Shown here: in pieces, positions 8,839-54,261 of the stretch
Layout: each line of letters begins with the position of its first letter
Position numbering within the stretch: the first letter of the stretch is position 1
NCBI GenBank assembly: GCA_054600435.1
Contig: BAAIJX010000032.1
Coordinates: forward strand, 124,001 to 188,000
Source of the DNA: Neophaeotheca triangularis
Taxonomy: Eukaryota
Reading direction: 5' to 3'
Length of the DNA stretch: 64,000 nt
Made by a program: the position numbers and the translations under genes
Notes under the pieces: generated by a model
Told to the model about the DNA's origin: nothing
Database searches by the model: none
Seen by the model: only the letters and a program-made list of their open reading frames with translations

Positions 8839-10465
8839 TCAATCATCATCCTTCTTTCTATCACCATCATCCTCATCCCTCTTATCCTTCTTCTTCCTCT
8901 CTTTCCTCAAAGCTTCCGTGACTTTCTTATCCCCAGCATCCATCGACTCATCCCACTCGACATCATACTCATCAGCAACCATCTTGATTTCACGCCGAAG
9001 CCTGTTGCCTTCGTCCATCAAGTGCTCCCAATTCTGCACGTTGAAACCCTTTTGCTCGTACAGCTTGGCCTGCTGCCTGGAGACGGTGAAGTTCATAGCG
9101 CTGCGATAGCTGACTTCGCGGTTGTGGTAGAGGAACCTGAGCTTGGCATTAGCGCGTTACCAAACACCATCTGCGGTCCATCGTCTTGGGCACTTACCAG
9201 AGGTAACCGCCAATGGCAACGGACAAGCCCACGAGATACGTGACGGGTTCCATGACGTCCCAACCAAGCTCCGTCTGGAATGTGAGATAATAGACCAAAC
9301 CCCACCAGGACATGAGACCGGCAAATCCTCCCTGAGCGACGCGCTTGGCACCTCGCTGGGCAATCTCGTCACATTCCTTCTTTAAAGCAGCAAGGTCGGA
9401 GATGCGCCCCGCCGTCTTGCGGAGTCGCATGCGCAGGTAGTATGTTCTGTCCGAGAAACTGGGCACGCCGACATAGATTGGAGGGCCGCCTTCTACCACT
9501 ACTGCAAACTCCTTGCCGCGAGCGGCATCACGAATGAAATCGCCAATCTCGGTTGAAGGAGACCAGCGAACGAAATTGGGGTGCTCTGGATCTTCGTCCT
9601 GGGGTGGTTTATCGGCAGAAGCTCTCGAAGTGGCATGTCCGTGAGCCGGCAGCTTAGCATCCTTCTCTCGCGCTGCTGTCGGGCTGATTTTGCCAGTCTT
9701 GAAGGACTTGTCGCCAATGCGCGTTTCGTCTCCGCCTTCGATGTTGAGGTTCTCCTGCTCCACGAGCTCATCTTTTTCATCCTCCTGTTCTTTGGTCTCC
9801 TCTACAGCACTCTTGCCACTGCCTAGGTCTTCTTCCATGCTGTCCTGCGCTCTGAACGTGATGGCGGGGCTTCTTTCTCTGCCACTGCTAGGGTCCTCGA
9901 CCATGGGTAGCTCGCTTTGCAACAGTCGCTCCAGATAGCTGAGTGGCTGCTGTGGATGCACCAGTAACGCCAAAGGCTCCACATCCTTGCGGTCCTTGTT
10001 CACGTCCCTGGTGGTGAGGGGCAAGATGAGTTTAAGCATGCGACTCGGGGTAGTCAACAGCTTGCCCTTGGTCATGGCACCAGCGCTACGTGCTCGTGCG
10101 ACTGGAGGCTTGTCGGAGCCTTCTCTCATCCATGGCGCGCGTATCTGCTTCTCTTTGCTCTCCTCCTCTACGCGGGTGAAGTGGTCTTTCTCCACGTCTT
10201 CGACCTTCTGCGACACTTCTGCGGCGGGCAGGGCGTCGGCGTGAGGTCCTCGCTTAGGTTTCTCGCCTGGGCTGCCATGGCCCTCGATTGGTCTGACGAG
10301 GAAATGTGGTGAAGCGGACAGACGGCGATGCTGTTGCTGTTTGAATCGCTTGGGGGTATTGTTCGACGAAGCTACGCGGTTGCCAGTAGTCGTCGTCGCC
10401 AGACCTGGCCGTGCTCGACATGTTGGGGTTGCGCGCACCAAGACGCGACAAAGCAGAGTCTCCAT
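8839..10465 (-). CDS. mcu: Mitochondrial calcium uniporter (fungal MCU), 2 exons
   Basis: Basic presequence-like N-terminus and two TM helices flanking the WDVMEPVTY selectivity filter. Intron 9197..9137 joins to FLYHNREVSYRSAMNFTVSRQQAKLY. Confidence 0.9.
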
Positions 10466-36889: not shown

Positions 36890-39231
36890 ATGGGTTGTAG
36901 CTTTCTCGTAACGCAAAGTATGAATTCGAATGTTGAATGTAGCAAGTGTTCCTCTTGTGCAATGATAGCAGTCTCAAGGGCTTTAGTTCTAGACATGTTT
37001 GGGTAGAATACTAAGGTACCTTACAATTAATGCTATTTGAATCGATGATGGTCTTTTCGTGAGCGGGTAGGGGAGCAACCCAACCCAGCAGTGGCAGTGC
37101 CAGGACCGGTTCAACTTCGGCAGACTTTGAGTGCGTGCACGACGGTCCAAGCTTGAGGATACAAGAAAACCTCAACTTTCGAATTCGCGACCTGCACTCC
37201 AAACCATCAACCTCTACAACCACCACCACTTCCGCCAATTCTTTTCAATAGCAACCTTCTTGTGGTACTCTTCAGTCATGCCATACTCCAGCATGTAGTA
37301 GCTGACTGATAGCAATGGTAAGCACCGCTCCCGTCTCTTCAACTCACCTCTGGGGATGAAATCGCAACAACCGCAATCAAACTAGAGTCTTTGACCTCTC
37401 CGGAGGACTGAAACTGTACTTGCACGTCAGTCTGATAGTCGACCTCACCGCAGCATTTGAAAAGGTTACGAGTGTCCGCGCTGTCGCTAATGCCGATATC
37501 TAGGTCTTGACCATGAACACAATGCTATGAGAGGCTTGGCCTAGTGCCACTAAAGACGACACCACGAGCCTATCCTGGTCTTTTCTCCCAAGGGGTGGAC
37601 TAGATCCTCGTGGGACCACATGAAAGACGTGAGTACATCCTTTCCATCCCCACCTCACCTCAAACCACCTCATATGATGAACATTTCGTTTATATACGCT
37701 GGAAATTACCGACTGAGACATTTGTCGCTGGCGAAAACAAATGGCTAAATCTGATCCCTCCCTATCAATTGCAACTGCTGTCACGAAGAACTATCTTCTG
37801 GACATCTGCTGATATGCGTTCGCAACAGGTTGCTAGCAGTCAAGACGACAGACAGTGTTGCTGCCCGTCACGTGTTACCGGTATGCAGGTATCGCTCCTT
37901 GCCCCCACGGCACAGCCACCTGGTAAGCAACCTTCACCCTCCTCACCCCTTGCATCTGATGAAGCGGCACTGGGCTCCGACTCAAGTCATGACCGGATAT
38001 GCCATTTTGCGACAGGCCTAGAAAACCTCGTCCACTGATGCGAGTAACTGGTCGAAATAAGTGTGATCAACATGTCTGCACTCCTCGCTAACGCCTTGCG
38101 TCTCCAGGGCACACACTCGATCAAGGACGTAGTTGAATCGGTCCGCCATGACGCTCCCCATGAATACGCAAAGTAAGTTGCTTCTCTGCCTTTGCCGTCT
38201 TCGCCAATATTACATGATGATCCTTTAAGATGACGAGTCTTATCTGGCCTTGCCAATGCGGACACAACTTTTACTACCATTCATGCAAACCCTGATCACA
38301 CTTGCACCTCCAACTCTATAGAGTTTCATTGAGTTGACAGACAGCTCACTGACTTTCGCGCAGGGTACATCCTACCTCCTCAGCATTCAGCCCATTGAGC
38401 TTGCCTACATGATGATACGACTTTACCAAAAGACAAGCATATGTCCAAGCTCTTTGACCGGAGCGGAGACGAGAACTGTCATGTCTGATTGGCATCTCAT
38501 ACATACATCTTGCCATCGATGTTACCAACGCTCTTACTGACTCGGTCAGTGGACGCAGAGCTTGCGCATGGTGAGCCTCTCGACAGGCGGGCACCCATTG
38601 TGGTTGCATACTCCAATCAACTCGCAGGAGTCTTTGGTATGTACACACACTCTTTTCCATTAACACCCTTAGCATGATGACTTCATACAATCACGACGGT
38701 CGACATAGCAGACTAAAAGTCTGTATTGATGAGATGGCCCTTGACCGGGCCTATTTGCACTGATCTCTTCTATTCGCGAAATCTCAGCTTGCTTTCCGTT
38801 CTACACGATTCGGGCCAGCGCTGACTGCAACATTCAGACAATAACCACCGTTCCGTCACTCGCGAGGTGAGGGCTGTTCTTGCCCATGCTGTTTCGTGGG
38901 TACCAATTTCGGTGGCCAAACTTTCCTCTGGCACATTGTGGCTGCGCTTCGTGTCAGGGGGTGCTTTTTGTGATTTGGGACTTTGTTGTATGTGAAGCGT
39001 GGAGGTTGAGATGACAAGCGAAGGGTGTTACGTCTCGTGCGATGCGTAAGGCATGTCGAGAGGGCTTTGGTATCATTCATCTTCCGAACCATCACGGCGT
39101 GACCCTTTTTCGCGGTGGTAGAAGTAAAAGAATCCCGTATACACTCCATAACACCAACGCTTCAACCCAAGCAATTAAGATCGCACCTCCCACGATATCC
39201 AGTCATAATGCTGCAGCCGCCCTGCCCTCGC

Positions 39232-45365: not shown

Positions 45366-45680
45366 GGGGAAGGCAAGACTTGTGCTTTGGCGTGGGTAGA
45401 ATAGAACGACGCTTTTATGACTATTGCTAGATGTGTAATGCTTCGAAATGAGAGACATGTGCTTGAAGTGAAGGAGATGTCCTCATGGCGGTGGCTTGTG
45501 GTTCAAAGTTTGCATGCTTGTGGCTAAGAAGCCAGTCACGTACCGTTTGCTGGATCTCGTGGAATGCCTATGTGAGTGATTTATAGTCGTAGGAGCTGCC
45601 TGGGGTGCGCCTTGAGTAGAAGAGTCTTTTATTTGATCGCGCATTCTTACCGTGTTGCATCTTTGCCTGGAAAGATTGCT

Positions 45681-46200
45681 GGTCGCTCCAGATCTGCATG
45701 TGACGTCCCCGGCGAAGCGTACTCAGCGAACTGGATCCTCGTCTGGTCTGGCGACTTCAAATAGCTGCTGTCATCAGGCTCACAGGATCCGCAGCGATCC
45801 ATGAAACCAGCCCTAAGCTGCCGTGAGGCAATGAGTCGAAGGGAATTGAGTAGTCTTGACTATTGGCACAATCGCACTAGATGTGGGCTTGATGTCCCTG
45901 GCGAAGCGTACTTCATTGGAAAGGTCTCCATCGAACTTGGAAGCTCCCAAATGGTGCTGCAATACAGGTCTCAGTGATCCGTAGCAAGTCATGAGATCAC
46001 GACTTTTTTTGCCGAGAGGTAACGCAAGCTGTTTGGGGAAGCTGATTCTGACTGCGGCCATCGACATGGTCGCTCCAGATCTGTACTTGACGTCCCTGGC
46101 GAAGCGCACTCAGCCCAAGAGGTTCTCGTCGAACTGGGTGCTTCCTGTGAGCTGCTGCCGACCAGTTCACAAGGTTCCGTAGCGAGCCATGAGATTACGG
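45681..46200 (-). repeat. Three degenerate ~190-bp tandem repeats, probably a decayed coding region
   Basis: TGAYGTCCCYGGCGAAGCGYACT at 45701, 45890 and 46088, with spacings of 189 and 198 nt. Confidence 0.65.
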
Positions 46201-47407
46201 CCCATGCTGCCGCAAGCTTGGGAAAACTGTCGGGGGGGCTATTGGTTGGGAGACTTGGAGAATTGTAGACACTGCCTTTGTACTGCCTCAGCGGTGACAA
46301 GTTGATGGTTCCTAGCAACTTCTGAGGCCATGAGGTAGCGCACGCTTCCGACAGGGCAGTTGAGCCGCTGGCCTTTGACTAGGAAGTTGGCGTCAATTTG
46401 ACAGGATTCGATTGGTGATGGTCTGTAGGTGATATCGACTACTTGTTGTGCCAGGCAACCTTCGAAGTCTCGAGGAGGTGCATCCGGGCAGCACTGCAGC
46501 GGACACGTGCGCGCACGCGTCCGTGCACAGACGTGCTAAATTTACGCACAATGCGGGAAGTGCGGGAGCTAAGCCGGGAACACATATGGCAAAATAGACA
46601 GCACTCGGTGTTGTCGAATATCAAAATTGCGAAAAGTTTGCCGCTGATGGTGTGTTGCAATTCAAGTCGTCGAGCATGGTTTGGCGTGTCAATGCGTTCG
46701 TTCGTTGATATCAATGGTATCGAACACGCTTGCAGAGCATTCAGCCGTGGATCTGCTGAGCGGCTCGAACTTCTTCCCTCCCATAGCAATAGTCGATGGC
46801 TGAGCGCACCATCTGCTGTCGAGGCACTAGGAGGTACCGGACGAGCTGATATGCTCGAGGCTCTTTTCGAGTTTGGTCAGCTGGTGAATCGATATAGAGC
46901 GTAGATACAAGCGTAGCCCTTGCGAACGATGCCACAAAAGTACCCATTTGGTGCCGTATCATGTTGCAGCGGAAAGTTGAATCCATTCGTGCTGCTGTTA
47001 GCATGCTTCAAGCAGTACAGGCGCATCGCTCGGTAACCGCAAGCTCGAAGAAAATGATACTCTGGTCTTGAGGTAATTCAAACGATCGGTTAGCAGGTCG
47101 TAGCTTGAAAAATCTTCGATGGCCCACGTTACAGTACTAGTACCTCCCGAGTCCGGACGGACTTTAGGTAAGTAGTCTCCATGATCAAGGCGTTCCATCG
47201 TGACTCGTGGTTACTGTCTAGCCCTACTCAATGAAGGACCGTGCGAGAGTAGTTCTCATCGACAGGGATTCCCTGCCCCGATTGACAACGTTGGCAACCA
47301 CGCAACTCAGAAGTAGGCGGAAAAAAGGCTTTATTGCAGCATACAAGCTACATAAAGTGCTGCAAGGTAAACGCACGTCATAAGGGGCAAAGATGATGTT
47401 TGTAATA

Positions 47408-47545
47408 CGACACCTTACTCAGGGGTTCGCCGCTGATCGTAGCATTGCACCTTGAGGTGGATTCTTACCTGTGGAATTCGAACTCGACCCCCGCAAGAAA
47501 TTAGCGAGGCTACAGCAGCATGTGCATAACAGTAGGCTAACGTGG
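47408..47545 (-). pseudogene. Degenerate tRNA-Ser relic with canonical-position intron and candidate GT-AG insert in the acceptor stem
   Basis: On the minus strand: anticodon stem TTAGC/GCTAA, loop CT-ACT, ~23-nt insert, long variable arm, GAGTTCGAATTCCAC, then AG|GTAAGA..55 nt..AAG|GTGTCG. The 5' half is not clearly recognisable. Confidence 0.5.
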
Positions 47546-47623
47546 CTGGTACAAGATTAGGATTCCAGTTAGGAATATATACAGCAATCCCGAGGGTCGT
47601 CGTTCAATACAACATCAACTCCA

Positions 47624-47782
47624 GGCATCTTGGCGGAGCGGTTAACGCGGTATGCCTCGCAACGCCCACAATATTCTGCAGATCCCGAGACTAACAAACT
47701 CGAAGTCAGCCTGCTAGCACTCTATTGAGTCTCAGCCTAGCTGATCCCTTCGGGGGCGTGTGTTCGAATCACACAGATGTCG
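47624..47782 (+). tRNA. tRNA-Ser(GCT) with one spliceosomal-type intron (47650-47705) and one canonical tRNA intron (47717-47738)
   Basis: Spliced sequence GGCATCT TG GCG GAGCGGTTAA CGC G|TCAGC CT GCT A|A GCTGA TCCCTTCGGGGGC GTGTG TTCGAAT CACAC AGATGTC G. All stems pair (one G-U), it has the Ser long variable arm and G73, and T7 follows. Confidence 0.88.
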
Positions 47783-47783
47783 A

Positions 47784-47790
47784 TTTTTTT
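47784..47790 (+). terminator. Pol III oligo-T terminator
   Basis: TTTTTTT begins 2 nt after the discriminator base. Confidence 0.75.
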
Positions 47791-50102
47791 GCCGTTTCCA
47801 TGCAAGAAGATGCTCCTGCTCGTGAACAAGTATCCGATGTGAAGGTAGAAGAAGTTGGTATGAATAGCAAAAGATGAAATCCGCCAAGACTTTGAGCTAG
47901 GATCTCAGTTGGTTCAGGAGAGCAAAGACATGAGCTACTCGCATTTCCGCAGCGAAACGTTGTTGCTTTGAGTAGATGGCTCTGAGCTAGCAAGCTACAA
48001 CGAGCAGCCGTAGGCATTGAACCGGACTCTTCATGGCTTGGATATCGACGACGGTGCGCATGCTTCAAGCTGGTGCCCCGTTGCCCCGGAAGGTGTCTGC
48101 AGCGGAGTCGTGTCGTCTCAAAGTAATCCCGTTGCATGTCTCTCCATGCTGACCGGAAGATGTAAGGAAGAGGCACCAAGATGGCCAAGATCTACAGGCT
48201 CTCCGGGCGCTGCGTTGGGAAGAGACTACACGAGTAGAAGTTGTGGCCTTGCAAAGTCGGTTTGGCTACGAGGTTGTGCCATGCTTCTCATATGACGGAG
48301 TTTGAGGCAGCATTCTCATAGGCTGCGGAGGGTGCGTTTGCCTCTCAAGGCGCTTTCTCTTGGGCTCAGGTTTCGCCCATGCCGTAAACAGCGTCTAGTC
48401 CGGGACAGTCAGTTGCAGCGCAAGCGAGCCGGCATGAAAAGACATGCTTGGACAACGCCACGATGCCGATATCGCGATATCGCACACACGCCGCTCAATA
48501 TACCTCGATTGTGGGGCGAATGGCTTCTTCATTAGGGCGCTGCTGGTCGACGCCGTAGAGAAGCCATGTGCAGGCGTGTAGTGACTAGATTCAGGTGCAG
48601 TTGTCTCGGCGATTGAGAGCCTGCATTGCTGGGGTGTTTTGGTGATCCGGCTGCAGCTCGAGGCGATTCAACAGTATGCTTTTACAATCCTGTCTCCGAG
48701 CCACCTTGGTGAACAATGTAAGCGCAGTTGTCTGAGTAAAGTCGGTGGCAATGCGGTTGTTGTAGCTCAAGACATTCCCATAACCATGCGAACGTACTAG
48801 TATCTACAGTGCGAATGCGACAACTTATTAGCTCGACCAGACCCTTGGGGCCCTTGATACTTTTTGAGCCATAGTCGCACATTGGCGACCTGAAACTACG
48901 CCCCCTGCGACACAAGGCTGCTCACCCCGCCGGATAGCTACTGTAGGTCTTTCGACGCAGGTTTGGTTCTATCGCACGTGGCGTCCGAGCACAGCGAGGC
49001 CGAGAATTTCGCTCTAGCCGCCTAGGACAGAATTTTGGGGCGCCTGAGCTGATGTCTTTCACTAGTAACTGTCCGGTAATGTGTCAGAGCTGCAGCCCAG
49101 TCACGGGCCAGATCTTCTAGACGCTGGAACCTGAAGGTATTTCCCTAGAGCCTTAGATGTCTCGAGCTGCAAGTTGATATCGCTCCGGTATTTATGCCAG
49201 GGAGTCAGCACCGCGCTTTGAGAGCGAGCCTTGTAGTCTCTCCCAGCGGCTCAGGTGGGCTGAGCGCTCGCAATAGCCTAGGGTTATGAGGCTGGGCTTG
49301 GACTCTTGCTGCCAGATGAGCTGGCGCTTCGCAGGTGTAGGAGCTTACGAAGCACGCCCGGGGCGTAGCATTACGAGCCAACAAGCCCACTTCAAGTTTT
49401 CACCATCCATCGAATAGGTATTCTTCCAAGCATCAGTATGTCTGATTTCGGGACTGTCGTTTCATTCGTCTAGCATCAGCACTGGTCATCAAGAGAATTT
49501 GCTGGCGAAGATTATAGCTGCATGGGTCAACCATCGCCGTAAGGGTGTCCCATAGCCGCCTGGACTTCGAGCACGGCCCGAATCTGCGAGCTGCATGTAG
49601 TCGTGAGCGAGCAAACTGCAGCATATAGACGTAGGTATGGCACCGGACCTCCATGTCCGGAGCTGGATTATCGGCGTGCAAAAGATTGCATGCTCAGAGC
49701 TGGCGCCTCGGTAAGGATCTACAGCAACAGGGAATGTCGTTCGGGGATGAAAGGCTTTCTATAGCAACCGGAGAGAAAACGCAGATTAAATAGAAACAGC
49801 CAAGATCTACAAGCTCGCCGAAAGTCGCGAACTCCCCGAACGTTGCGTTGGCAGACGGATTGTAATTTGTGCCTACGGAAGCCGCTACGAGGTGGGTTTG
49901 ACTGTGAGATTCCAAATCAATCTGCCCACGGAAGGAGCTTCGGGGCAGCCTCCGCAGCGCTCGCAATTAGCGTCTATCTTCCTAAAGCTCTCTCGTTCAA
50001 AGTTTGACACTTTCTACGTAGTGGGCTGCTATAAAAATTCAAGTATTATATACAAACAGCAATTTTAATGTTCCATCGAATTGGCTTGTAATCCAAGCGC
50101 AA

Positions 50103-50324
50103 GACAACGTGGCGGAGGTAATTCTACACCACACCACCATAGATTGGTCGTCCAAGTTCTAACACTCTACCTCAGTGGTTAACGCGGTATGTGTTACCGA
50201 ATCCAGATTCATCATTGAATCATACGCTAACAACCACAAAGCCAGCCTGCTACTACCCCTCAATATAAGAGGTTGAGCTCAGCTGGTTCCTTCGGGAGCG
50301 TGTGTTCGAATCACATCGTTGTCG
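50103..50324 (+). tRNA. tRNA-Ser(GCT) with two spliceosomal-type introns (50118-50175, 50187-50241) and one canonical tRNA intron (50253-50280)
   Basis: Spliced sequence GACAACG TG GCG GAG|TGGTTAA CGC G|CCAGC CT GCT A|A GCTGG TTCCTTCGGGAGC GTGTG TTCGAAT CACAT CGTTGTC G. The acceptor stem is perfect and the cloverleaf is 81 nt. Confidence 0.88.
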
Positions 50325-50335
50325 CAGCAACATTC

Positions 50336-50341
50336 TTTTTT
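50336..50341 (+). terminator. Pol III oligo-T terminator
   Basis: T6 begins 12 nt after the tRNA 3' end. Confidence 0.65.
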
Positions 50342-50830
50342 GCGAACAATCCATGTTGTACAGACAGCTATCTTTCTTTTTCTTTTTGCTAAAAAGTAGT
50401 GAACCAAGACAATTTTGTATAGAATACTACTTGTAAAGGTACATTCTGGCAGTTGAAAACATATACATTCTGGGCGTCGCTGTCGAGAAAGGCATTGTAA
50501 GACTCAGCAGGGCAGTTCTTGTGAAGCTCGCTCCCCCCTTGGTGTTCTAAGAAGACCTTATCGTTCATCAGCCTAAACACCGCTATTTCTTCGATACTCC
50601 TCGCTCGTTATTGCGACTCCTAGATAGTCGATCAAGAGCCGGAGACATCAACTGCGAAGTCGTTCTGATCAAGACCTGCTCTGGTTCCCTTCCGTATTGA
50701 TTGTGGACTCTGGTGAGTATATGTTATCAAGGTACGACTACCCAGGGCCCATTGCTAGTTGGTACCGGATGAGTCTCCGCAAGGCCAACTAACCCAAGCC
50801 CTCCCAAAAGCCACCGAGTGAGGCATAGGT

Positions 50831-52152
50831 ATGGCCGTTCCACTCGATACGAGCGGTAAACTGCACCACTGGCCCGCAATGTATCCCTTCGTCGCCATCC
50901 ACAGTTGGCCGCCTCAGGGGTAGCCGCTTCAGGAAGGTCTCATCCAAGTCAAACCCGGCGATCACGGGTTCATTGGTGGCGTCGACTCAAAGAGACAACT
51001 CGTCAAGGTTGAACTCGCCAAAACCATTCTGCCCGGTCGTCCTGTAGTAGGTATGGTCTACCACGCCGCACTCCAGATTGGCAGCAAACGCAGTGTCACG
51101 GAACCCTGGATCATTGAAGTCACCGAGCCTCCCAGCCCATCGATTACCCTCACCCCCTTCACTGGCCGAATCCTGCTCAACACCATCGAAGGCCTGATAC
51201 GAGCCTTTGAGCAGACTACGACTGGCCCCATCGTCCTATGTATCTCGACACCGCCCTGAATGATTCAGCGCAGCGCAAGAGACTACTGAATGCCATCCTT
51301 TCCGGCATGCGAGACGCCAGCAAACCCCTTTTTGATCAGCTGAACACCGGAAAATTCGACCTCGCGGACATTGTTCGCCTTGGTGGGAAGCCAGACAAGC
51401 GTGTCGGCATCTACATGATTGTGTACCACTTTCCCAGAAACGAAGATGGAAGTCAGCGATTGCCCGAAGTGTACGTCGGCAGTACATCTGTAAACTTCGC
51501 CTCACGATGGAATCAGCATTGCACAGCGATCGACAATCCCATTGAGCCCCAGCAAGAGCGCAATCACCACTACCAGAGCGCACGCCAGGCCACCAGTCGT
51601 TGACTCATCCCACTGTCTCTTCTCCCCGGGCTGAAGCAGGGCGACGAGGAAATGAAACTGGCAGAGCAAATATTTGTCTGTCTGTTCCAAACGGCTTCTC
51701 GTAGGCTACTCAGCTATAGGGCGGATGACTTTGTGGGCCCGGGAGCACCAGAAATGTCACAAGACGATGATCCGAGTGAAGATCTTGTCGCACGGATACA
51801 GCGGTATTTTCTCGACAAAGAGTGCGCTGTTTTCTTGGGGAAGCTGGCGAGAACGGTCTTTGATAGCACAGGCTGGCCTGGGGCATTCCGCCGCTTGCCC
51901 AGTAGCAGAGCCGGCGCTTTCGGCGCGGCCAGTGGGCTCAATTGGTCGAGCCCGGCCATGGAGATGCAGCACTCTCGCACCACCTTGATCCGGACCCTGT
52001 CGAAATTGCACCTTCGATCGAGGCCAGCGTTCGCAGAATTCTCCGATAACAAGGACTCGTATGTGGTCCCAAAATCTAGCAGCGGCTCTTGCTTCGTCCT
52101 TCTTCTTCGCAAGGTCACGCCGGTCGCTACGTGTTCGATGAACGCACCTTGA
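50831..52152 (+). pseudogene. GIY-YIG nuclease-domain pseudogene
   Basis: RVGIYMIVY...EVYVGST...SRWNQH...HY, then an in-frame TGA (51601-51603) followed by LIPL...KLAEQIFVCLF. There is also an upstream TAG and a frameshift near 51237. Confidence 0.65.
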
Positions 52153-52786: not shown

Positions 52787-54261
52787 CTACTCGGTCTTCG
52801 CAGCAGTCTCCTTCTTCGGTCTCGAAGCGAGCTTTCTAGGCTTCTTCTTCTCCACGGGCGCACCATTCGTCTGCGCTGCGCCTTCCGCCGGCTTCTGGCT
52901 CGTTTCCTTCTCCCCCTGCTTCTCACCCGACGCAGTCTTAGCTGGTGCAGCAGGAGCCTTCTTCTGCGCCGGTTTCTGTGGGGTAGCAGCACCGCTCCCC
53001 GCCTGCGATCCAGTCTTCTTAGGAGTTTGTCCCAGCTTCTTCGGTGGCGGTCTCTTCGGTGTCGCAGCGGGGCTTTCAGATTTACCATCCTCACCACCTT
53101 GCGTCGTGGTCGTAGCAGTCGACTGTGCCATGGACGGTTTCCTAGGTTGTGTAGGCCTTCTCTTGGCTGGCAGCGACTTGGCCTTTTGCTTTTGCGGTGC
53201 CTGCTTCTTGTTCGCACCCTCTTCTTCCTCCACAAGGAACTGCCCATCCTCTGACGTTCCATTATTCACGGCACCGACATCGTTTGGACAAGCACTCATG
53301 ACAACTACAACGTCTCGTTCGGCTCGGAGACGCACGTAATCGCCTTCTCTGCAGTCCGGCGCGGCAAAGGAGAGATCTCCAGAATCGGCCCAAGGTACGT
53401 CTGTGAAAGTGTTAGTCAAGTCTCACGCACTGCAGTCGGAAGAAACTCACTCATGAACAAATTCAGAGGTGCCGGCACACTATTGATGGTAACTTCGGCA
53501 CCCACGCCCTTTGCACCCTTCAAACCTGCCCTCTCATTCAACTCCTTCAACGCGAGTACGAGATTCTCAGCGCAACTGCCATGTTCCTCCCAATTCTCAA
53601 CACCAAGCTGCCTGTACCTGAAAGGGTCGCAAGCCGATATGACAGTATCGTGAACGCCAGACGAAGAATCCTCTACGAGCGTCAACATAGGTTGCCTCAA
53701 ATTGCTGTAGAAAATGTCGTTGACTCGCGGACGCAGATGCAAGGACTGCGCGTGCGTGGCCGGCATCGACATGTACTCCATTGGTGGTCCGTTGGGGGCA
53801 TTTTGTGCGTTCCATGCTTGGTACCCAGCGTAAAGGGAGCCACTATAGCCACTGCCGGTTAGTGCTGGGGAGAAACGATTAGTACATGAGCAAGCTCCCA
53901 TTGAGATGACTGAGTACCTACCAGAGAACCCTGCTGCCCCAACCGGAGTCTTGGAGAACGCTTGCAACTGTTCCATGTAGGATTTGTTTGGATCTGGTTT
54001 ATGCTGGGTCTTGACTGTCAGGAACACCAAACATGACTGGCTGATATATCATGCCAGCAAATACGCACCGTTGAGGTAAAGGCAGACACCGTGTCGGTTG
54101 CGGTCTGCGGAACATAGGAGGTAAAGGCCTTTCCACTTGGAAAATAACTCCCCCATGTTCTCGAGTCTTGCTTTCGTTGTTCAGCGTTTTGTTCGGTCTC
54201 GCCAGTCTTTTTCCCTCCTCTCCATCCAAGTGACGGAATGTACGAGCTCCAACCGCTAGCT

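Follow-up and report, generated by a model that had tools for sequence, protein, structure and literature searches.

Putative spliceosomal introns in two tRNA-Ser(GCU) genes of Neophaeotheca triangularis and in serine tRNA genes of related fungi

Contig BAAIJX010000032.1 of Neophaeotheca triangularis (assembly GCA_054600435.1) carries, within positions 124,001 to 188,000 of the forward strand, two transfer RNA (tRNA) genes for serine that are interrupted by inserts with the signals of mRNA introns. This stretch of 64,000 nucleotides (nt) is referred to below as the window, and coordinates are counted from its first letter. The two genes, designated A and B, are probably working tRNA-Ser(GCU) genes with U2-type GT-AG spliceosomal introns in addition to the standard intron at tRNA nt 37/38, and they look transcribed by RNA polymerase III (Pol III). 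Judging from the sequences compared, the inserts appear to belong to a family found in the tRNA-Ser(GCU) and tRNA-Ser(AGA) genes of Pezizomycotina-like fungi, which would occupy at least 13 positions between nt 8 and nt 30 and would have been gained and lost among close relatives. The machine that splices mRNA probably also helps to make a tRNA.

Anatomy of genes A and B

In the initial annotation, a 56-nt insert was described in gene A at 47650-47705, starting with GTATGC, containing ACTAAC at 47690-47695 and ending with AAG, a description that matches the sequence to the base. The branch A at 47694 is located 11 nt from the 3' end, and the terminal AAG at 47703-47705 closes the insert 10 nt past the C of ACTAAC. 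The terminal AG is the first AG downstream of the branch A, and the longest T run within the insert is 2. The upstream exon ends in ..AACGCG and the downstream exon begins with TCAGCC... When ARAGORN was applied to the raw window, 0 tRNAs were detected, and Rfam scans of the window likewise gave no tRNA, three box C/D small nucleolar RNAs (snoRNAs) being the only matches. After 47650-47705 was cut out exactly, ARAGORN with the option -i returned a tRNA-Ser(gct) of 81 nt containing a 22-nt intron at 37/38, so that the cloverleaf which precise removal had been said to restore was indeed obtained. The separate 22-nt canonical intron that had been placed past nt 37 is also present at 47717-47738, with the AGC it was stated to contain at 47734-47736. 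Without removal of the insert, gene A was miscalled by the intron option of ARAGORN as tRNA-Asn(att) with a 68-nt intron, and this miscall illustrates a possible route of mis-annotation in public genomes. The parts of gene A are as follows.

47576..47581, plus strand: TATATA, a possible TATA-type promoter element, 43-48 nt 5' of gene A
47624..47782, plus strand: gene A, tRNA-Ser(GCU) with two introns, 159 nt (mature form 81 nt); found by ARAGORN after exact removal of the insert; unique parse
47624..47649, plus strand: exon 1, tRNA nt 1-26, with the acceptor 5' strand, D arm and G26; A box intact
47650..47705, plus strand: spliceosomal-type intron at 26/27, 56 nt; GTATGC, ACTAAC, AAG
47706..47716, plus strand: exon 2, tRNA nt 27-37, with the anticodon stem 5' strand, anticodon GCT and A37 (ARAGORN)
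47717..47738, plus strand: canonical tRNA intron at 37/38, 22 nt, no GT..AG ends (ARAGORN)
47739..47782, plus strand: exon 3, tRNA nt 38-81, with the long variable arm, T arm with B box, acceptor 3' strand and G73 (ARAGORN)
47784..47790, plus strand: T7 run read from the sequence, Pol III-type terminator

Gene B is located 2.3 kilobases (kb) downstream of gene A and contains two GT..AG inserts, one of which shares its position with that of gene A. Here, tRNA-Ser(gct) was found by ARAGORN only when both inserts had been removed.

50103..50324, plus strand: gene B, second tRNA-Ser(GCU) gene, three introns, 222 nt (ARAGORN on the spliced form)
50118..50175, plus strand: spliceosomal-type intron 1, 58 nt, in the D loop after nt 15, interrupting the A box; GTAATT, TCTAAC (branch A at 13 nt from the 3' end), CAG
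50187..50241, plus strand: spliceosomal-type intron 2 at 26/27, the position shared with gene A, 55 nt; GTATGT, GCTAAC (branch A at 11 nt from the 3' end), AAG
50253..50280, plus strand: canonical tRNA intron at 37/38, 28 nt (ARAGORN)
50336..50341, plus strand: T6 run, Pol III-type terminator, 11 nt 3' of the discriminator base

Both genes lie within a region of about 5.5 kb (approximately 45400-50900) that contains no long convincing open reading frame (ORF), and nothing else was identified there.

Comparison of the two genes points to constraint on the exons. Once spliced, A and B each show a cloverleaf, a long variable arm, the anticodon GCT, G73 and compensated pairing, as found in functional tRNA-Ser(GCU). 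The mature sequences are identical at 70 of 81 nt. Of the 11 differences, 8 make up 4 pairs of compensatory changes (5-76 and 7-74 in the acceptor stem, 27-43 in the anticodon stem, 45-54 in the variable arm), 2 are one-sided with pairing kept, and 1 is located in the D loop; there are 0 broken pairs. The two 26/27 introns display 54% identity, compared with 46 +/- 9% for random insert pairs, and in their alignment only GTATG, CTAACAA and AAG are conserved. This is the pattern that would be expected for functional paralogues sharing one inherited intron constrained only at its signals.

Splice signals in the window and in its mRNA introns

The inserts of the window have the attributes of U2-type GT-AG introns, namely the 5' site, a CTRAY branch motif at the distance used by the host, the 3' AG and the length. 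For the comparison with the host, an ORF-continuity screen of the window yielded 70 noisy intron candidates, of which two were validated by continuity of a Pfam profile.

9137..9197, minus strand: mRNA intron, 61 nt; GTAAGT, GCTAAT (branch A at 12 nt from the 3' end), CAG; match to the MCU profile continuing from 136 to 139 over the junction
53401..53450, minus strand: mRNA intron, 50 nt; GTGAGT, ACTAAC (branch A at 11 nt from the 3' end), CAG; match to the DUF1989 profile continuing from 136 to 138 over the junction

The tRNA inserts of the window, at 55-58 nt and with the branch A 11-13 nt from the end, fit both of these introns, and the agreement of the gene A insert in size and signals with the mRNA introns of the window, as originally proposed, thus holds for the two validated cases.

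Inserts in the serine tRNA genes of relatives

Metagenomes were scanned with a 25-nt pattern taken from the variable arm and T arm, which gave 106 loci and 100 parsed genes; the B box is intact in all scanned genes by design of the scan. Six loci were not parsed: contig ends truncate L028, L037, L057 and L095, L042 represents another tRNA gene, similar to Ser(UGA), and the gene at L005 was worked out by visual inspection. The 100 parsed genes together with A and B constitute a set of 102 genes, 68 of them distinct, in which 31 genes are without an intron, 39 have the canonical 37/38 intron only and 32 (28 distinct) carry extra inserts. One insert is present in 22 of the 28 distinct insert-bearing genes and two are present in the other 6, and the canonical intron is kept in all 28. 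ORFs near insert-bearing loci encode HET domains (L015, L074) and a basic leucine zipper of the Aft1/Atf1 type (bZIP; L079), which are marks of filamentous ascomycetes. It was also observed that the only difference between L077 and L076 is T in place of G at tRNA nt 1 in L077, a change that would disrupt the first pair of the acceptor stem and could reflect a variant, an error or a decaying copy.

For each of the 34 inserts in this set, a strict tRNA-Ser(GCU) 5' half is regained by removing one, and only one, possible G[TC]..AG interval; of these intervals, 32 are GT-AG and 2 GC-AG. The inserts are 48-67 nt long and occur at 12 positions, after nt 9, 10, 11, 13, 14, 15, 17, 18, 20, 26, 28 and 30. 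The gene at L005 has two further inserts, outside the counted 34, one of which, after nt 8, represents a 13th position. At the 5' site, G1 is present in 34 of 34 inserts, T2 in 32 (C in 2), G5 in 31 and T6 in 23. An NCTRAY motif with its A 9-15 nt from the 3' end is found in 31 of 34. The 3' ends are CAG in 19 inserts, TAG in 8 and AAG in 7, and in 23 of 31 inserts, all three of the window among them, no other AG intervenes between the branch A and the terminal AG. The GC-AG inserts are insert 1 of L026 and the insert of L100 (GCAGGT and GCGAGT, respectively); GC-AG is a known minor variant of U2-type introns. It can be seen from an internal control that such signals are not a general property of introns in these genes, since among 60 canonical 37/38 introns of the same genes the G[TC]..AG placement occurs in 0 and the branch motif in 1. 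The splice signals of the inserts exceed chance.

Furthermore, the inserts and their hosts have diverged to very different degrees. In genes sharing an insert position, exons are 97-100% identical and inserts 44-81%, while the insert alignments retain the 5' site together with the branch motif and terminal AG. At syntenic loci with flanks 79-95% identical, inserts differ by exact presence or absence. At a monomeric locus whose downstream flank is shared with the insert-free L024, relatives carry inserts after nt 10, 11 or 13, or after both nt 10 and nt 17 (p10, p11, p13 or p10+p17 in the notation used below). Inserts after nt 10 (L052/L087) and after nt 11 (L007/L035/L044/L008/L070/L080) have GTACGT and the branch region GCTTACTAATCC in common and little else; a one-base sliding of the intron at an orthologous locus may account for the two positions. 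Canonical signals, a remainder that is not conserved, varied positions and lineage-specific presence are, as far as these alignments indicate, the traits of U6-like, mRNA-type introns in noncoding RNA (ncRNA).

At nine loci (L008, L017, L069, L098, L001, L010, L068, L080 and L027), the tRNA-Ser(GCU) gene is followed by a tRNA-Ser(AGA) gene that begins 5-22 nt past it, and a T-run terminator is present only after the second gene. An insert of the GT-AG type, after nt 13 or 14, is carried by the linked AGA gene itself at 5 of these 9 dimeric loci. The combinations for tRNA-Ser(GCU)/tRNA-Ser(AGA) include the following.

L017, L069: none/none
L008: p11/none
L001: none/p13
L080: p11/p13
L010, L068: p13/p13
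L027: p14/p14

In L010/L068 and in L027, the position of the AGA insert equals that of the upstream GCU insert.

Searches for other interrupted tRNAs and other insert types

A splice-and-scan search for other interrupted tRNAs gave 56 real matches and 35 in a shifted-boundary control, a control that is uninformative because ARAGORN finds the Ser genes again with shifted ends. The matches to His, Thr, Tyr, selenocysteine (SeC), Ser(gga) and Ser(tga) were rejected as false or as miscalls of the same genes, and tRNA-Ser(AGA) was the only real addition. In a small sample centred on Ser genes, none of the other tRNAs called by ARAGORN in the loci needs removal of such an insert. Extra introner-like copies of the inserts were absent from the 420,283 bases searched, where only orthologous introns match each other. 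Group II introns were considered and rejected: the GTGYG start occurs in 0 of 34 inserts, and a length of 48-67 nt is too short for domains V/VI.

Transcription signals

The sequence flanking the genes resembles that of Pol III genes irrespective of the inserts. Among non-dimeric genes, all 23 with inserts and all 36 without have a run of at least four T residues in the first 40 nt downstream. AT-rich 8-mers or TATA-like elements are located at -60..-15 in nearly all related genes, with or without inserts. In the window and the loci, a recurrent CATCAAYCA(R)CAA-like motif was observed at approximately -25..-10, and TATATA-like sequences at -60..-30, again regardless of insert presence. Runs of at least four T residues occur within 1 of 32 inserts, compared with 6.0 +/- 2.1 in shuffles, and only 0.8% of shuffles were as low. 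A B box and a T run are present in gene A (T7) and in gene B (T6), and the A box is intact in A and split in B. Taken together, the flanks, the terminators and the depletion of T runs appear to favour Pol III. An upstream TATA box matters for tRNA genes in some fungi and plants (PMC3978253), and TATA-directed Pol III transcription may be the way in which a split A box is tolerated.

Proposed maturation pathway

According to the pathway proposed here, Pol III would produce a precursor holding both kinds of intron. The U1 particle would pair with the GTATG-type 5' site, branch-point factors would bind CTAAC, and the first suitable AG, 11-13 nt downstream of the branch, would be used. The GT-AG intron or introns would then be removed as lariats by the spliceosome in the nucleus, before the 37/38 intron. 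The latter would come second, through cleavage by the tRNA splicing endonuclease and joining of the exons by tRNA ligase, and end processing and CCA addition would proceed as usual afterwards. As regards the order of events, the tRNA splicing endonuclease measures from the folded tRNA body. This body cannot fold while the D arm or anticodon stem is split, and the spliceosomal step is therefore most likely the first.

A wider picture is put forward more tentatively. The spliceosome could be obligatory for tRNA maturation in a clade of filamentous ascomycetes, with Pol III transcripts of tRNA-Ser(GCU) and tRNA-Ser(AGA) passing through both the spliceosome and the endonuclease, and some species, perhaps including this one, could be without an intron-free gene for their only AGY-decoding tRNA. 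The introns would have arisen again and again through reverse splicing into tRNA-Ser, at 13 or more sites, and the split A box would imply TATA-directed initiation by Pol III.

Weighing of alternative explanations

Several observations weigh against the interpretation of the inserts as spliceosomal introns of working Pol III genes. Three of the 34 inserts have no strict CTRAY motif, all three being near-consensus, and 8 of 31 have a further AG between the branch A and the 3' end that is used. The 3' end of the two 26/27 introns is AAG, which is less favoured and occurs in 7 of 34 inserts. Many of the inserts are orthologues and do not count as independent samples or events. In the metagenome scan, the context of the 26/27 intron gave 0 matches, leaving this position backed only by the paralogue in the window. 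Moreover, an intron-free tRNA-Ser(GCU) copy elsewhere in the genome could supply the mature tRNA, with A and B being dead, silent or never spliced. Many related fungi do have intron-free genes (31 of 102 without any intron), and in gene B the A box is split. Against this stand the 11 differences in 81 nt between A and B, with no broken pair and 4 compensatory pairs, and the near-identity of exons in genes whose inserts have diverged to near-random identity. Decay would not preserve the splice signals, T-run terminators and upstream elements, all of which are kept, and we consider dead or silent copies very unlikely. A further possibility is that the inserts represent tRNA introns in ectopic positions, excised by the tRNA splicing endonuclease at motifs like the bulge-helix-bulge (BHB), as in Cyanidioschyzon merolae, nucleomorphs and archaea. 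Ectopic introns of the D and anticodon arms exist in those lineages, as the parts of PMC3978253 and PMC9602550 that deal with them describe, and relaxed BHB-like pairings are possible in 19 of 34 inserts, compared with 15% at shifted sites. These pairings scatter over 12 registers, none of them consistent, and a strict BHB is possible in 1 of 34 inserts against a null of 2%. For the gene A insert no BHB-like pairing was found even with relaxed criteria, and neither junction falls in a bulge in the minimum free energy fold of the gene. The window inserts lie at 26/27 and after nt 15 and not at the canonical endonuclease position 37/38, where the separate 22- and 28-nt introns are located. Cutting at BHB-like motifs would also leave the invariant G[TC]..AG, the G at +5 and the CTRAY at fixed distance unexplained, features that are not typical of the 60 canonical introns. 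With no consistent motif in 34 inserts, BHB-type introns were rejected and are regarded as hardly credible.

The choice of polymerase is a separate matter. A textbook type-2 Pol III promoter requires an intact A box, and 29 of 34 inserts, intron 1 of gene B included, split A-box DNA (nt 8-19). A T6 run inside a gene would terminate Pol III in many species, and one is tolerated within the insert of the tRNA-Ser(AGA) gene of L068, where the near-identical L010 has TTCACT. Depletion inside inserts of runs of at least five T residues is not significant (0 observed, 1.6 expected). Tolerance of a split A box would be explained if the inserts were spliceosomal introns of Pol II transcripts, comparable to snoRNA host genes, from which RNase P and RNase Z would free the tRNA after splicing; the T6 run of L068, the TATA-like elements upstream and the location of A and B in a 5.5-kb ORF-poor stretch are compatible with this. 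Such a scheme is nevertheless unlikely, given that downstream T runs and the AT-rich element are alike in insert-bearing and insert-free genes, that runs of at least four T residues are depleted within inserts, and that the B box is intact throughout, as the scan pattern requires. TATA-dependent transcription of tRNA genes by Pol III is moreover known in fungi and plants (PMC3978253). For the inserts being spliceosomal introns, irrespective of the polymerase, speak the paralogue with an intron at 26/27, the 32 of 102 genes with GT-AG inserts, the missing BHB and the constraint on exons, all of which strengthen the spliceosomal reading first given to the gene A insert.

Other features of the window

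Three box C/D snoRNAs stand in a row on the plus strand within approximately 630 nt (37670-38297), an arrangement suggestive of an Aspergillus-type cluster that is polycistronic or hosted in an intron.

37670..37756, plus strand: Afu_300
37952..38040, plus strand: Afu_513
38212..38297, plus strand: snR75

Significance

In reviews and textbooks, the spliceosome serves Pol II transcripts and a few genes for small nuclear RNA (snRNA), snoRNA and ribosomal RNA (rRNA), and a protein endonuclease serves tRNAs. Introns of tRNA are described as always located at 37/38 and as handled by the endonuclease (PMC10275265; PMC12530127). If the interpretation is true, natural and widespread tRNA genes that need both splicing systems would break this division. 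They would also offer a natural system for studying how the spliceosome is recruited to short, uncapped and highly structured Pol III transcripts, and would show that a tRNA gene can function despite a split A box. The gain, loss and possible sliding at syntenic loci would be dense material on the gain of spliceosomal introns in ncRNAs. Because such genes are missed or miscalled by ARAGORN and Rfam, fungal genomes may seem to lack, or may misreport, the essential AGY-decoding serine tRNA.

Comparison with known systems

In Schizosaccharomyces pombe, U6 is a Pol III gene with an intron that the spliceosome removes, and up to four unrelated introns occur in the U6 genes of fungi, as the sections of PMC5855946 on U6 report with reference to Tani and Ohshima 1989, 1991 and Canzler et al. 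2016 for these mRNA-type introns. Measured against those sections, the serine tRNA genes are similar in that the host is a small, abundant, structured Pol III ncRNA, the signals are canonical with sequence otherwise unconserved, positions are many and unrelated, several introns per gene are possible and gain is lineage-specific (PMC5855946). The same sections favour reverse splicing followed by reverse transcription as the origin of U6 introns (PMC5855946). Unlike U6, the tRNA host stands outside the spliceosome, and proximity to the active site therefore cannot explain insertion. A further difference is that the internal A-box promoter of the tRNA gene is split by most inserts and that the same gene contains a second, endonuclease-type intron. 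Fungal U3 snoRNA introns have normal spliceosomal signals, and 133 of 138 are located in the 5' half according to the part of PMC5832005 describing them. A comparable 5' bias is observed here, with all tRNA-Ser inserts within nt 8-30; the RNA class is different, and tRNA is not mentioned as a host in that part of PMC5832005.

With respect to tRNA introns themselves, those of eukaryotes are placed between N37 and N38 by a 2023 review, which sets them apart from spliceosomal splicing (PMC10275265). In a 2025 paper, the three nuclear intron types are described as unrelated, and mRNAs and other transcripts of Pol II are given as the hosts of spliceosomal introns (PMC12530127). Genes A and B each have one canonical 37/38 intron (22 and 28 nt), from which the GT-AG inserts differ in position and signals. 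Interruptions of the D and anticodon arms and several introns per gene are shared with Cyanidioschyzon merolae, nucleomorphs and archaea, as far as the relevant parts of PMC3978253 and PMC9602550 describe them. Unlike those ectopic introns, which are characterized there as BHB-defined and endonuclease-cut, the inserts display no consistent BHB and have GT-AG and branch signals instead. Group II introns in plastid tRNA genes are of the lariat type, organellar and self-splicing. In yeast, an engineered pre-tRNA containing the actin intron reportedly underwent splicing through the mRNA pathway (Koehrer, Vogel and Domdey, EMBO J 1990), which would demonstrate that the spliceosome can act on a Pol III pre-tRNA. 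These cases are organellar or artificial, whereas the inserts described here are nuclear, natural and 48-67 nt in length.

No report of spliceosomal introns in nuclear tRNA genes was found in the full-text literature searched, outside of which lie most subscription journals and some PMC articles. The ncRNA hosts of spliceosomal introns named in the cited passages of a 2018 review are U6, U2, U5, U1 and rRNA, with tRNA not among them (PMC5855946). From the signals, positions and conservation compared here, support is obtained for the view that A and B contain introns of the mRNA type within ncRNA genes of Pol III appearance, as in fungal U6, here with a tRNA as the host.

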